Below, one piece after another: positions 14,555-24,573 of a stretch of DNA of 64,000 nt (its first letter is position 1; the number at the start of each line of letters is the position of its first letter). Under the pieces are notes generated by a model, which worked only from the letters and a program-made list of their open reading frames with translations, ran no database searches and was not told the origin of the DNA. Source of the stretch: a phage; the sequence record PZ027503.1; one strand, 5' to 3'. The position numbers and the translations under genes are program-made.

Positions 14555-14989
14555 ATGTTACAAGTTCCTGCTAAGTTTGTTGAAGGCGCTATCCACTCTT
14601 ACCGTCAAACATGTAAGAGGGCAAGAAACTGTTTAGATGGTCTGGTGGCAAAAACCTATACTGTTGAAAAGAAGAAACGTTGGTTTGGCAAAGATGTTTA
14701 CGAAGTTAATATTTTTGGTGAACATAAACTAAACCATGATACTCCTGAAAACATGTTAGAAATATTTCTAAGAGATGACAAAATATCTCCTATGGATTAC
14801 CAACTTTTAAAATTTTATGATTCTTCTTTGGCTATTGATAAGTTTGTTGAAGATATTCTGTCTAGAAAAACAGATAAAAACACTTATCCTCTAGAAGCTG
14901 ATCAAATAGGATTATTAAACGAGATTTCATCCTTTAAAGAGTTGGATAATATTACAAAAGAGGAGATTTTAGATGGCATTAGATTATGA
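14555..14989 (+). CDS. hypothetical protein
   Basis: ORF in track; GGAGA RBS. Confidence 0.5.
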   Translation: MLQVPAKFVEGAIHSYRQTCKRARNCLDGLVAKTYTVEKKKRWFGKDVYEVNIFGEHKLNHDTPENMLEIFLRDDKISPMDYQLLKFYDSSLAIDKFVEDILSRKTDKNTYPLEADQIGLLNEISSFKELDNITKEEILDGIRL

Positions 14990-15482
14990 TCGCCCAACGA
15001 GCGATTATTATCCGACACCGCAAAAAGCAATCAATAGTTTGTTTAGTGTTATAGATTTCAAAAATCTAAAGGAAGAAGGTTGGGTTTTTGCAGAACCTTG
15101 CAGAGGTGAAGCTGAAGCGATTTATCGCCATTTTCCTGAAGGTTCGGAATATTGCGAACTTGAAGAAGGTAAAGATTATTTTAGTCATGAATGGGAAAAT
15201 CGTCCCGACATTATAATCACAAACCCTCCATTTAAGTTAGCAATGGAGTTCTTGGAAAAGAGCTTAAAAGAGGCGGATGTTTGTATTTATCTTCTTCGGT
15301 TGGGCTTCTTGGAGTCAAAGAAACGACGAGAGTTCCATCAAAAGAATCCACCAACAAACCTTATAGTCCTTTCAGAACGGCCTTCGTTTGTTGCAGGTGG
15401 AACAGATAAGACAGCATACGCTTGGTATGTATACGACCCAAAGAATCGTTTGGGCCTCTCTCAACCATTTTATTTTGTTTAA
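14973..15482 (+). CDS. putative N6-adenine DNA methyltransferase (small phage Dam-like)
   Basis: DYYPTP near N-terminus and IIITNPPF motif; 169 aa. Confidence 0.45.
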   Translation: MALDYDRPTSDYYPTPQKAINSLFSVIDFKNLKEEGWVFAEPCRGEAEAIYRHFPEGSEYCELEEGKDYFSHEWENRPDIIITNPPFKLAMEFLEKSLKEADVCIYLLRLGFLESKKRREFHQKNPPTNLIVLSERPSFVAGGTDKTAYAWYVYDPKNRLGLSQPFYFV

Positions 15483-20471: not shown

Positions 20472-20480
20472 TAAATAATA

Positions 20481-20502
20481 ACCCGCTTCGGCGGGTTTTT
20501 TA
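20481..20502 (+). terminator. intrinsic terminator
   Basis: ACCCGC-ttcg-GCGGGT hairpin followed by TTTTTT. Confidence 0.6.
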
Positions 20503-20531
20503 TTGACAGGAATCTGGAAGCTTGATAAACT
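20503..20531 (+). promoter_or_regulatory. sigma70-like promoter
   Basis: TTGACA, 17-bp spacer, TAAACT. Confidence 0.45.
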
Positions 20532-20561: not shown

Positions 20562-21503
20562 ATGGTGTTAATTGGTAGCCGTGCATTACAAATTCATGCT
20601 ATGGACATGGGAAAAGACTTGTATCGCCCTTGTGTAGATTTAGATTACCTGTGTACAGAACAAGAGTGGGAAGAATTATCAAAAATGTTCTCTCAAGATG
20701 AGTTTGTTGAACTTGTAGAACGTAAAGGAAACAAAGGCCATGTCAAAATGATAGCTGGTGCACATTTGGAATACGATATTGCTTCTCAAGGAGATAGCAC
20801 AGAAGCTTTGATTAGTTATTGTGAAGATTCTGATGATGTTCGTCGAACTTACGCTGGACATGTTGTTGCTCCTTTAGATGTGCTCTACCTTCTTAAAATG
20901 AGTCATCGTTTTAAAAAAGATAGTCCTCACTTCTTTAAAACTATGAAAGATATTCATTTCATGCGGTCACTGGGCGCAAAGATCCCAGAAAATCTTAAGA
21001 GTATTTATGAGTTGCGTGAGAAAGAAACATACACTTACTCTCATCCGAACTTAAACGTAAAAAGTAAAGACTTTTTTAAAGGTGATGAGGTTCCGTATGT
21101 TTATGATCATGATTCTATCCATGAAGCAATCGCGGTAATGGATGCTCCGGCATATAAATCTTATATGAAAGATGGAAGTGAAGTTATGACCAGCAAAGAA
21201 AAGTTTTTTGCTCAACCAAAACATGTGCGCCTGTTAGGTGTTTATGAAGAAGCGTGTGTTTTGGCTTTGGAACGTTCACAAATTCCTTTCGGTGGAGAGA
21301 TCGGAGGTCCAACCCCTAAGCAAAGTTTTATAATGGCTTTATCTAAAGTCTGCACATCCATCACTAGTGGTTGGTTTAGGGAATATGCTTGGGAAAACTT
21401 TTATGTTGTTATTAAACTATATGAAAACATGGGCGAAAACGACTATGTTGAACGTTTTAAAGCTAATCAACATGTAGTAAAGCCTTTTGAAGGAGGTTAT
21501 TAA
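20562..21503 (+). CDS. hypothetical protein (possible nucleotidyltransferase-like fold, weak)
   Basis: 313 aa; N-terminal IGSRA...VDLDYL loosely resembles GS...DxD of Pol-beta-type NTases but spacing atypical. Confidence 0.5.
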   Translation: MVLIGSRALQIHAMDMGKDLYRPCVDLDYLCTEQEWEELSKMFSQDEFVELVERKGNKGHVKMIAGAHLEYDIASQGDSTEALISYCEDSDDVRRTYAGHVVAPLDVLYLLKMSHRFKKDSPHFFKTMKDIHFMRSLGAKIPENLKSIYELREKETYTYSHPNLNVKSKDFFKGDEVPYVYDHDSIHEAIAVMDAPAYKSYMKDGSEVMTSKEKFFAQPKHVRLLGVYEEACVLALERSQIPFGGEIGGPTPKQSFIMALSKVCTSITSGWFREYAWENFYVVIKLYENMGENDYVERFKANQHVVKPFEGGY

Positions 21504-21504
21504 T

Positions 21505-21900
21505 ATGTGTGGATATCTTTCAGAAAGTTATTTCAAAGTGACGCATGAGGATTTAGAAAAAGCACGATTGAAACTGACAGCTATTATTGAATACTCTAAT
21601 ACTGTTGATCACAGATTAAAGACTACTAAAGTATCTGTTCCTTGTTGGTTAGGTTTACGGCATAAAATAATGTCTCAACATGACCATGTTGTTCGAGAGA
21701 TGCATGGTTGGTGTTGGTTTCACGATGTGGCTCTGCATTTTGGTTATATTACAGAAGAAGAGCATAGATTCTGTGAACTAACATATCGTATTCCAACCCT
21801 TCACGATTTAGATTTGTGGAAGAAAGCAAACGAGATTTTTCTTACAGAAAGTGATTGGCGTAAAGTTATGGCTTGTCTTGAATGGAGGGGTAATGAGTAA
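21505..21900 (+). CDS. hypothetical protein
   Basis: ORF trimmed to ATG 21505 after GAAGGAGG. Confidence 0.5.
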   Translation: MCGYLSESYFKVTHEDLEKARLKLTAIIEYSNTVDHRLKTTKVSVPCWLGLRHKIMSQHDHVVREMHGWCWFHDVALHFGYITEEEHRFCELTYRIPTLHDLDLWKKANEIFLTESDWRKVMACLEWRGNE

Positions 21901-22576
21901 AACAGTTTTGTCTATGTTTGACGGATCTGGGATCATGGTGTTACGTTATGCCGAAGCAGGTCACAAGTGTTTTTGTGTAAACGCTGATGAAGGGGATCAC
22001 GGTAAATACGAGGTTAGGATGGAGCACCCAAACATAACCTATGTGAATGCCTGGATAGATTCTACATTCAACCCTGAAGATCATGGGATACCTAAACCCG
22101 ATATTATTTTTGGATTTCCACCTTGCACTATGTTAGCAGGTAGTGGTAGCAAACACGAACGCAGCACAGAGGAATTGGATGAAGCTTTAGCTAATATTCG
22201 TGTAGTGGAAGCTTTGGGTAACAAATATAATGTTCCTTGGATGATTGAGAACCCAGTAGGTAAACTTTCAACCTTATGGCGTAAACCCGATTTTTACTTT
22301 GATCCTTATGAGTATGGTGGGTATTTGTTTGAAGAGGAAGGAAGCTTTCATCCTAAAATGCCTACCCGTGATGGGTATACAAAGAAAACTTGTATTTGGC
22401 ACGGCAATGGTTTTGTTCAACCAGTTAAGAAACCAGTAGATCATATAGGCTGCTTCTGGGGTTGGAAAAGCTTAGGTGGAGCTAGTGCAAAAACAAAACA
22501 ACTTAGATCACTAACCGCACGTGGTTTTGCTCGTGCAGTGTTTTTGTCTAACAATCTTCTAGATAAGGAGAAATAA
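21893..22576 (+). CDS. C5-cytosine methyltransferase-like catalytic-core protein lacking a target-recognition domain
   Basis: LSMFDGSG (motif I-like), FGFPPC (PC motif), MIENP (ENV-like); only 227 aa; ATG 21893 after GGAGGGG. Confidence 0.35.
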   Translation: MSKTVLSMFDGSGIMVLRYAEAGHKCFCVNADEGDHGKYEVRMEHPNITYVNAWIDSTFNPEDHGIPKPDIIFGFPPCTMLAGSGSKHERSTEELDEALANIRVVEALGNKYNVPWMIENPVGKLSTLWRKPDFYFDPYEYGGYLFEEEGSFHPKMPTRDGYTKKTCIWHGNGFVQPVKKPVDHIGCFWGWKSLGGASAKTKQLRSLTARGFARAVFLSNNLLDKEK

Positions 22577-23229
22577 TGTCAAATTCAAAACCAGTGGTTG
22601 CTTATCAAGTAGATCGTAATGATGGTGAAGGAAGTGTTGTTATTTTCAGTACACACGGTCTTGAGGCTCGTCGAAAAGGTGCATATCGTTTAGAATGTGA
22701 GTTTGAAGACTGCACAAGCCACCGTGTCAAACAATTCGATCAATATGCTGATAAAGGCTTCGTCCCTATCAAAGCGTTACTGGAAGATGGTTGGTGGGTA
22801 TATTCTGCTTTTGATTACTCAAAACTGGAGGAGTCAGCTTCGTGCGCCTCCGAGATCGAATATGATGATTACTATGACACTCTATACCTTCCAGAATGGC
22901 TTGTCTTTTCTCCTGATGAGAGAAGTGTCTGGAAAACGTGGGAAGAAATGGAGAGACATGCGTATAGCATCAATGAAGCTTTAGATCGTAAAGCTTGGTT
23001 TATTGAGGCAGTAAAGGCGGCATACCCCCAATTCTCATTCTGTGATTTCACTGGTGGCCCAGGATACATTACACATACAGCCTCTTTTGAGTTTCCTGGT
23101 TCACGTTATAAGGGTAATGTTTATTGGGACTGGGATGAAAATAAACAACCTTCGGCTCAAGACTTCCGTTGCTATGTTTGTCAAGGCGATCAAGAAGCCC
23201 TTGACAAATACCTACAAAGTCTGGTATAG
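22576..23229 (+). CDS. hypothetical protein
   Basis: ORF in track; TAATG overlap. Confidence 0.5.
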   Translation: MSNSKPVVAYQVDRNDGEGSVVIFSTHGLEARRKGAYRLECEFEDCTSHRVKQFDQYADKGFVPIKALLEDGWWVYSAFDYSKLEESASCASEIEYDDYYDTLYLPEWLVFSPDERSVWKTWEEMERHAYSINEALDRKAWFIEAVKAAYPQFSFCDFTGGPGYITHTASFEFPGSRYKGNVYWDWDENKQPSAQDFRCYVCQGDQEALDKYLQSLV

Positions 23230-23244
23230 TGCCAGCATCTGAAC

Positions 23245-23276
23245 AAAGCCTCCTGTTTCAGGGGGCTTTTCTTTTA
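23245..23276 (+). terminator. intrinsic terminator
   Basis: AAAGCCTCC...GGGGGCTTT 9-bp stem (one G-U) followed by TCTTTTAT. Confidence 0.5.
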
Positions 23277-23287
23277 TAGGAGGGAAT

Positions 23288-23773
23288 ATGTTTCAAGTAA
23301 ATGTCAATGTGCATAATAGTTACTCTGATTGTGAAACGTGTGGCTATAATTCATCTAATGTTATTCGTATTAGTGGCGATTTAGGAGAAGCTTCTTTTGG
23401 AGAAGAAGCAAGTTGCTTTAGTGGTATGGATGCAGAATGGAATGATATTGCACATTGGTTAGTGAGCAAACTAAAAGAAAAAGAGAAACCATTTCCTACT
23501 CTGCTTGATCGTTCTCTTGTGGAAGATGCAGGTAAAGCATACGCAGACTATGCGTATGCAGACGGGAAATATTTGGAAGATGATAAGGCTAACCATTTGC
23601 TTTATGTTTACTATGAAGCTGAATCTGCCTACGATAATTATTACAGCATGTCTAACATCCTACGTCTGTTTGCAGAGTTTGATATTTATTTCGAAGTAGA
23701 ATTTTCAGAAGATGATACTTACGAGTACAATTCTTATGATCCATTTGAGGAGGAAGAATGCCAAGACGAGTGA
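23288..23773 (+). CDS. hypothetical acidic protein
   Basis: ORF in track; GGAGGGA RBS. Confidence 0.5.
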   Translation: MFQVNVNVHNSYSDCETCGYNSSNVIRISGDLGEASFGEEASCFSGMDAEWNDIAHWLVSKLKEKEKPFPTLLDRSLVEDAGKAYADYAYADGKYLEDDKANHLLYVYYEAESAYDNYYSMSNILRLFAEFDIYFEVEFSEDDTYEYNSYDPFEEEECQDE

Positions 23774-24573
23774 TTTTTGTAAGCGGTGCAGGTTTAAGTG
23801 CAGACAGTGGGATTCGAACATTTAGAACAGACACAGATAGTGGTCGTGCTTTATGGGAAGAATATGATTTAGAAGAGGTCTGCGATATTGGAGCTTTCCA
23901 AGCAGGTTATCGTGTTAGAACATCTCCAGATCTTCCAGTGGTCGGTGGTGTAGACGAGAACGGTATGGATTTGTATGCCAAAACACACGAATTTTATAAC
24001 AAAAGACGTGTTGAGCTTAAAGATGTACAACCTAATGCTGCACATATTCAAATAGCAAAGTGGTTTAAGGAATATCCTAACCAAATAGTAAACTTGACAA
24101 CAAACGTTGATGATCTACTAGAGCGAGCAGGTGTAGACAGAGATTCTGTTATTCACGTACACGGCTATCTTCCTGAAGTAGTTTACCGTATGCATCCTGG
24201 AGATTACAAAACACTGGTAGATATTGGTTACAATAGTATAAACATAGATGATTATAACTGGGTGAAGCCTAATGTTGTATTTTTTGGTGAGGCTGCACCT
24301 TTGTATGCAGATATGGCTCACTTGTTCGATACTTTGACCATGCAAGATTTGGTTGTAGTAGTAGGATGTTCAAACCAAGTTATCAATTTTAATTGGGAAT
24401 TATTTCCTGCACTTAGTATGGGTACAAAAATGGTTGTAGTTAACCCTGGAGTTAATTACGAAGAAACACTTCTCTATGAAGATCGTGGAGTTTTTGTTTA
24501 CCGAGAAAAAGCTGCAACAGCCTTCAGCAATGAAGGTTTCATTAAAATGGTCGAAGACCACTTAAACAAATAA
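23758..24573 (+). CDS. Sir2-family (sirtuin/CobB-like) protein lacking the zinc-ribbon cysteines
   Basis: GAGLSADSGIRTFR, QPNAAHIQIAKW, TTNVDDLLERAG, VIHVHG, VVFFGE parallel CobB; the Cys4 segment is absent. Confidence 0.8.
   Translation: MPRRVIFVSGAGLSADSGIRTFRTDTDSGRALWEEYDLEEVCDIGAFQAGYRVRTSPDLPVVGGVDENGMDLYAKTHEFYNKRRVELKDVQPNAAHIQIAKWFKEYPNQIVNLTTNVDDLLERAGVDRDSVIHVHGYLPEVVYRMHPGDYKTLVDIGYNSINIDDYNWVKPNVVFFGEAAPLYADMAHLFDTLTMQDLVVVVGCSNQVINFNWELFPALSMGTKMVVVNPGVNYEETLLYEDRGVFVYREKAATAFSNEGFIKMVEDHLNK

Follow-up and report, generated by a model that had tools for sequence, protein, structure and literature searches.

The dcm locus

The window analysed here is a stretch of 64,000 nucleotides of phage DNA (sequence record PZ027503.1), and all positions given below refer to it. 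The gene of interest, dcm, is an open reading frame of 227 codons, with an ATG at 21893 and a TAA at 22574-22576, as read from both the ORF table and the sequence (Table 1). Its start codon lies inside the 3′ end of the upstream ORF, whose stop codon is at 21898-21900, while its stop codon shares one nucleotide with the ATG of the downstream ORF. The ORF table shows no competing ORF of note on the opposite strand. The translation contains F9-D-G-S-G13, F73-G-F-P-P-C78 and M117-I-E-N-P121 in that order, exactly as described in the initial annotation, which was made from the sequence alone.

The gene is one of four tightly packed genes, which encode in order a DUF7277/DUF7275 protein, a 131-residue protein, Dcm, and a 217-residue protein. 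The first of these has two domains, matching DUF7277 (E 8.5e-14) and DUF7275 (E 7.5e-76). The promoter listed in Table 1 probably marks the start of this unit, which may be expressed early in infection; the promoter and both terminators are consensus matches. There is no Vsr or restriction enzyme encoded beside dcm. Just past the unit is a Sir2-family gene (23758-24573, forward strand; PF02146, E 1.9e-22), which in related phages is named NAD-dependent deacetylase.

Table 1. Features of the dcm unit, of the encoded protein, and of a second methyltransferase-like gene in the window.
Feature	Position	Strand	Basis
169-aa methyltransferase-like gene, NPPF motif	14973-15482	+	Translation, phrog_799
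Terminator-like hairpin just before the promoter	20480-20497		Consensus scan
Putative sigma-70-like promoter, TTGACA-17-TAAACT with TG extension	20503-20531	+	Consensus scan
Gene for 313-aa DUF7277/DUF7275 protein, first of the unit	20562-21503	+	Domain matches
Gene for 131-aa protein (phrog_16551), upstream of dcm	21505-21900	+	ORF table, phrog match
Shine-Dalgarno sequence GGAGGGG, 2 nt before the dcm ATG	21884-21890	+	Read from sequence
dcm gene, 227-aa short phage C5-cytosine DNA methyltransferase (phrog_757 family)	21893-22576	+	ORF, phrog_757, KarlJaspers Dcm homology, fold
Motif I, F9-D-G-S-G13, SAM-binding loop after strand 1	21917-21931	+	phmmer and hhalign alignments, family conservation
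Motif IV, F75-P-P-C78-T79, catalytic cysteine C78	22115-22129	+	Conservation and alignments
Motif VI, E119-N120-P121, ENV-type glutamate	22247-22255	+	Conservation and alignments
Variable loop, residues 146-161, between the last two core strands	22328-22375	+	Length and conservation profile
Motif VIII-like block, Y162-T-K164-K165-T166, start of last core strand	22376-22390	+	Conservation, model
Residues 172-198, sole segment at the place of a TRD	22406-22486	+	Model secondary structure, conservation and length profile
C-terminal block, T201-K..R205-S-L-T208-A-R210-G-F-A-R-A215-V..N220, two helices, motif IX-like	22493-22552	+	Conservation
Gene for 217-aa protein (phrog_8514), downstream of dcm	22576-23229	+	ORF table, phrog match
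Strong terminator-like hairpin, 11-bp stem and T tract, closing the unit	23245-23269	+	Consensus scan

A large family of short proteins

Neither the gene nor its family is new. The 3 kb around dcm is 99.7-99.9% identical to the corresponding region of phAPEC8-like Phapecoctavirus myoviruses (among them Escherichia phage anhysbys, ESCO13 and Schickermooser). The same ORF is named Dcm (anhysbys_166) at the same position in MN850648, and is called DNA methyltransferase, DNA methylase or putative site-specific DNA methylase in other records.

The protein belongs to phrog_757, annotated as DNA methyltransferase (E 1.8e-84, with residues 1-225 matching profile positions 13-223 of 247). With tblastn, relatives were found in 1488 phage records, among them Drexlerviridae, Klebsiella weberviruses, rV5-like phages and phage D6; many are annotated as cytosine methylases. 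When 1.84 billion representatives of 50%-identity clusters were searched with a profile, 1868 proteins had E of 1e-3 or below. Given the full-length match to phrog_757 and this wide set of relatives, the ORF is a genuine gene and not there by chance.

Nearly all of the full-length relatives are 200-260 residues long, and the 88 that were aligned are of 202-261 residues. The protein studied here, at 227 residues and with no extra domains, is within this range, and its small size is therefore normal for the family and not the result of truncation. The longer relatives carry no fused specificity domain; only one intein and one HNH domain were found among them. The intein (Hint plus LAGLIDADG) is in a metagenomic protein of 548 residues (P0260), and sits exactly at the junction of FGFPP and the catalytic cysteine. 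It begins CFTGDTLV and finishes VHN, so that the catalytic cysteine is the intein +1 residue. The HNH endonuclease domain (PF13391, E 5.9e-8) is C-terminal to a short Dcm-family domain in another metagenomic protein, of 348 residues (P0214).

Conservation was scored on the 88 aligned relatives, each of which is 31-58% identical to our protein. Invariant residues are C78, E119, P121, P138, Y162, W169 and P177, while F75, P76, N120, K164, T166, R205, P209, G211 and A215 are nearly invariant. Strong conservation is seen in the motif blocks and in residues 129-145, 162-171 and 199-220. The regions 35-70, 146-161 and approximately 183-193 are poorly conserved and variable in length.

Sequence relationship to C5-methyltransferases

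Profile searches for a C5-methyltransferase domain gave a divided result. The Pfam model PF00145 scores 11.6 bits against a gathering threshold of 22 (E 0.18) and covers only residues 4-92; it reaches E<1 in only 8 of the 88 relatives, with a best value of 0.0067. No NCBIfam model matches the protein. Two profiles of the family were compared with the sequences of solved structures, of which one (A1) gave no match and the other (A2) only chance matches with E>0.2. Sequence alone thus fails to tie the family to the C5-methyltransferases of known structure.

A positive result came from local hhalign comparison of the family with a profile of canonical enzymes, which consisted of M.HhaI and M.HaeIII (whose sequences were verified against the PDB) and E. 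coli Dcm. This profile is narrow, as a search with M.HhaI gave only relatives more than 70% identical to it. The alignment has E 2.7e-4 and places residues 1-126 on residues 12-126 of M.HhaI, with motif I aligned, C78 on C81 and E119 on E119. For the family, neither hhalign against M.HhaI alone nor a global alignment to the canonical profile was significant. In a phmmer search, residues 5-87 were aligned to M.HaeIII (E 0.08), with FDGSG on FSGAGG and PPC on PPC. A C5-methyltransferase profile search on its own would therefore have been equivocal, since the sequence link to the canonical enzymes is weak.

The alignments agree on the position of the main motifs. Motif I matches FSGAGG of M.HaeIII in the phmmer alignment and FAGLGG of M.HhaI in that from hhalign, and has the family consensus SLFDxTG. 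The catalytic cysteine, C78, corresponds to C71 of M.HaeIII, C81 of M.HhaI and C82 of the Dcm protein of phage KarlJaspers, which is discussed below. Close relatives have P-D-C here, so that within motif IV only P76 and C78 are fixed. ENP is aligned with ENV at 119-121 of M.HhaI and with E128 of KarlJaspers Dcm, the position of the valine being taken by the invariant proline.

No sequence alignment reaches the motif VIII region. From its position in the structural model, the block Y162-T-K-K-T166 may be equivalent to the motif VIII sequence QxRxR. K164 and K165 correspond to K175 and K176 of KarlJaspers Dcm, which are among the residues changed in an inactive mutant of the K42 enzyme. A search of the C-terminal half for motifs VIII-X gave only a ten-residue match to motif IX, which was not significant.

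Predicted structure

The AlphaFold2 model, which was built from 42 relatives, is confident, with a pLDDT of 88.4 and a pTM of 0.87. Only residues 81-86, directly after the catalytic cysteine, are poorly defined, and the low pLDDT here is in keeping with a mobile catalytic loop. The core consists of five strand-helix units that carry motifs I, IV and VI. Next come a short strand at 134-136, residues 138-165 with a helix and a loop, and the last core strand (166-171), which is preceded by Y-T-K-K-T. The C-terminus comprises a segment of approximately 27 residues that has a single short helix (172-198), followed by the helices 199-206 and 210-219.

Foldseek matches this model to DNMT3B and DNMT3A with E 2e-8, and the protein is thus predicted to have the fold of a C5-methyltransferase catalytic domain. 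The original assignment to this class stands up well: a match to the methyltransferase fold was found, and C78 is aligned with the PC motif. The nearest viral models in BFVD are members of the family named as cytosine methylases; other short C5-methyltransferase-like viral proteins, of approximately 210-250 residues, are matched as well. Domains that match the Dcm model, at 25-27% identity, were also seen within two much larger uncultured-phage proteins, A0A6J5SE15 (1397 residues, E 7e-11) and A0A6J5NPY6 (1126 residues, E 3e-10), one of which is named 'Helicase/UvrB, N-terminal'.

The similarity to the catalytic domain of mammalian DNMT3A and DNMT3B is at the level of only 14-19% identity. The DNMT3 domains are of approximately 280 residues, retain motif X, form DNMT3-DNMT3L tetramers and are accompanied by chromatin-reading domains. 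The resemblance probably reflects the fact that both lack a bulky target-recognition domain (TRD), and not a close kinship.

A different possibility is that the main substrate is RNA or tRNA, as for DNMT2 and NSUN, or single-stranded DNA, or free dCMP or dCTP; the initial annotation had raised free nucleotides and RNA. Neither the ranking of folds nor the motifs give any support to a free-nucleotide or RNA substrate. DNMT2 and the RNA m5C methyltransferases (RsmB/Fmu, NSUN) match the model less well and over fewer residues. The pair of cysteines expected for the RNA m5C class (RsmB/NSUN), in a motif IV PC and a motif VI TC, is not found, the second cysteine of the NSUN-type motif VI being absent, and the protein has no RNA-binding domain. 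The model also does not have the thymidylate-synthase fold of the free-nucleotide class (thymidylate synthase/dCMP hydroxymethylase). We consider a main substrate of any of these kinds very improbable.

Absence of a canonical target-recognition domain

In M.HhaI and M.HaeIII, which are approximately 100 residues longer than the phage protein, ENV is followed by a helix-containing segment, a TRD of 80-100 residues, and motif X. None of these is recognisable in the phage protein. A TRD of approximately 80 or more residues between motifs VIII and IX is absent, and the lengths of the segments and loops in the model and the family profile leave no room for one. The claim that there is no TRD is thus borne out, the only sequence at that place being approximately 27 residues (172-198). 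This segment varies from 21 to 40 residues in relatives, with residues 183-193 being variable, and might act as a mini-TRD. The poorly conserved loop 146-161, which is from 2 to 30 residues long across the family, is a candidate DNA-contact loop, and these two variable stretches are the most obvious candidates for reading the bases.

The initial annotation had also proposed that motifs IX and X are missing. For motif X this holds at the sequence level, as there is no recognisable GNxV and only 13 residues remain after the motif IX-like stretch; the helix 210-219 might stand in for it. For motif IX it is probably incorrect. The C-terminal block has the family consensus TKxIRSxTPRGFAxAVFxAN, and the best local match of RSLTARGFAR (R205-R214) is to motif IX of M.HhaI, RKLHPRECAR at 272-281 (5 of 10 residues identical; E 0.17, and so not significant on its own). 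The corresponding sequence in E. coli Dcm is RRLTPRECAR, which is similar, the glutamate of motif IX being replaced by glycine in the phage protein. The block is therefore described here as motif IX-like, a resemblance and no more than that.

E. coli Dcm and M.EcoRII-type enzymes (PF00145) share the fold, the chemistry and the presumed target, CCWGG, with the phage protein. E. coli Dcm, however, is 472 residues long and has an N-terminal extension, a complete TRD and the motif X sequence GNSV, compared to 227 residues here. Because there is no large TRD, recognition of DNA by the phage enzyme would have to rest on the short loops (approximately 146-161, and 172-198) and the motif IX-like block. 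It might be helped by self-association, as in the DNMT3 enzymes.

A studied relative activates retron Ec86

The most informative relative is the 'Dcm-like C5 cytosine methyltransferase' of phage KarlJaspers (Bas06; MZ501090), which is encoded by a gene of 711 bp. The two proteins are 50% identical (E 1e-71, aligned over residues 5 to 220), and C78, E119, K164 and K165 are matched by C82, E128, K175 and K176. They have the same end-to-end architecture, with the catalytic cysteine, the glutamate and the lysine pair all in common, and both are products of orphan genes, that of KarlJaspers being located among small early-type genes. The KarlJaspers protein has 236 residues rather than 227, and the two sequences differ at half of their positions, some of them within the variable loops. 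The phages are themselves different, KarlJaspers being a T1-like siphovirus of the Drexlerviridae and the phage described here a myovirus of the Stephanstirmvirinae.

It has been shown by others that this 50%-identical relative produces 5mC on DNA when expressed alone, and that it triggers a retron. In the KarlJaspers-like phage K42, mutants that escape retron Ec86 (Eco1) have lesions in the 711-bp dcm gene, and this gene, when expressed by itself, is toxic to retron-carrying cells only (bioRxiv 10.1101/2023.08.16.553469). By LC-MS, 5mC in the msDNA was high with wild-type K42 dcm and low with either a C82A/E128A/K175A/K176A mutant or the empty vector (bioRxiv 10.1101/2023.08.16.553469). The retron-triggering result has been repeated in later papers.

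These observations have a direct bearing on three further explanations. The first is that the protein is a degenerate and catalytically dead remnant, retained for another function, for example DNA binding or service as a decoy, as might be thought from its very short length, its score below the Pfam threshold, and its lack of a canonical TRD and motif X. Against this, relatives of only 31-58% identity have C78, E119 and P121 without exception and a conserved motif I, the family has very many members of uniform length, and the K42 enzyme generates 5mC in a manner that depends on the aligned catalytic residues. It is extremely unlikely that the protein is inactive in this way.

The second is that the protein is a catalytic subunit that needs a separate phage-encoded specificity partner, for example the translationally coupled 217-residue downstream protein. 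It is suggested by the missing TRD of normal size, and by the overlap of start and stop codons with both neighbouring genes, whose products have no known function. However, K42 Dcm expressed alone from a plasmid is enough for methylation of msDNA and activation of the retron (bioRxiv 10.1101/2023.08.16.553469). Nor do the neighbours have homologues next to dcm in KarlJaspers, PaulSarasin or D6 (tblastn gave no match below E 0.02), and the neighbourhoods in these three phages yielded no conserved partner gene. A two-part enzyme is very unlikely; self-association of the DNMT3 kind may occur, and is compatible with a protein that acts alone.

The third is that a group other than methyl is placed on C5 of cytosine, such as carboxymethyl from carboxy-SAM, which is made by E. 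coli. The match concerned is no better than those to ordinary methyltransferases, and the product of the relative matched a 5mC standard in LC-MS, making this explanation scarcely credible.

Predicted function and target site

We consider it highly probable that the product of dcm, a member of the short 'phage Dcm' family, is an orphan DNA (cytosine-5)-methyltransferase that is active and works by itself, most likely on CCWGG and with a protective role. The initial annotation had described a C5-methyltransferase without a normal TRD, which agrees with our results, and had suggested that it may be degenerate, in need of a partner, or active on nucleotides or RNA. In place of these suggestions, the protein is most likely active, autonomous and directed at DNA.

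By analogy with the known enzymes, motif I would bind S-adenosylmethionine, C78 of FPPC would attack C6 of a flipped-out cytosine, and E119 of ENP would hold the base, with K164 and K165 at the place of the motif VIII arginines. Most likely CCWGG, which is the host Dcm/EcoRII site, would be methylated in phage DNA and incidentally in host DNA. This would guard the genome against restriction at CCWGG where the host methylates too slowly, and could at the same time expose the phage to retron Eco1 (Ec86).

The choice of CCWGG follows the K42 work, in which the specificity was presumed and unmapped, and in which mutation of the CCTGG in the msDNA stem abolished Ec86 defence (bioRxiv 10.1101/2023.08.16.553469). 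A dcm+ host, MG1655, showed low methylation of msDNA when the phage gene was not present (bioRxiv 10.1101/2023.08.16.553469), implying that specificity or preferred substrate may not be the same for the phage enzyme as for host Dcm.

Site frequencies in the 64-kb window were compared with those expected from a maximal-order Markov model. There are 98 CCWGG and 340 GATC sites, both with an observed/expected ratio of 1.12. Strong avoidance is seen for CTSAG (0.23), GGCC (0.31), GTAC (0.35), CCGG (0.39) and CTAG (0.52), and CCSGG is absent, with 0 sites against approximately 10 expected. These counts fit with CCWGG and GATC sites that are protected by methylation, a picture that host Dam and Dcm alone would also give. 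We found no methylome or restriction data for Phapecoctavirus in the literature, and in the BASEL study the methyltransferase genes of phages were not linked in any simple way to restriction resistance.

What remains of interest is structural, namely how an enzyme of 227 residues chooses its target with no normal recognition domain. A bolder suggestion, which we think rather unlikely, is that the phage Dcm family may have the smallest architecture of any natural DNA C5-methyltransferase, a bare catalytic core with neither TRD nor motif X and with an unconventional mode of recognition. Recognition might then involve DNMT3-like self-association, use a target that is very short or relaxed, or favour DNA in hairpin or single-stranded form. 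If true, it would explain why Ec86 msDNA is methylated sufficiently to trigger defence by the phage enzyme and not by host Dcm.

It is probable that this phage methylates cytosines in its own DNA and, by means of the second small methyltransferase in Table 1, adenines too. Such methylation would bear on sensitivity to restriction and on sensing by retron Eco1, and is thus relevant to phage therapy candidates of this genus. The second gene had been noted previously as Dam-like; it is present, and encodes a protein of 169 residues, unusually small, with the motif IIITNPPF that is typical of amino-methyltransferases. There is no Pfam or NCBIfam match to this protein, whose target might be GATC. 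It matches phrog_799, annotated as DNA methyltransferase, with E 2.8e-59, over only positions 206-373 of the 458 in the profile. In the P1-like phage D6 (L007 2471-4049), a short Dcm-family gene, 32% identical to that described here, shares 8 nt with another methyltransferase gene, one similar to the C-terminal half of P1 dmt.
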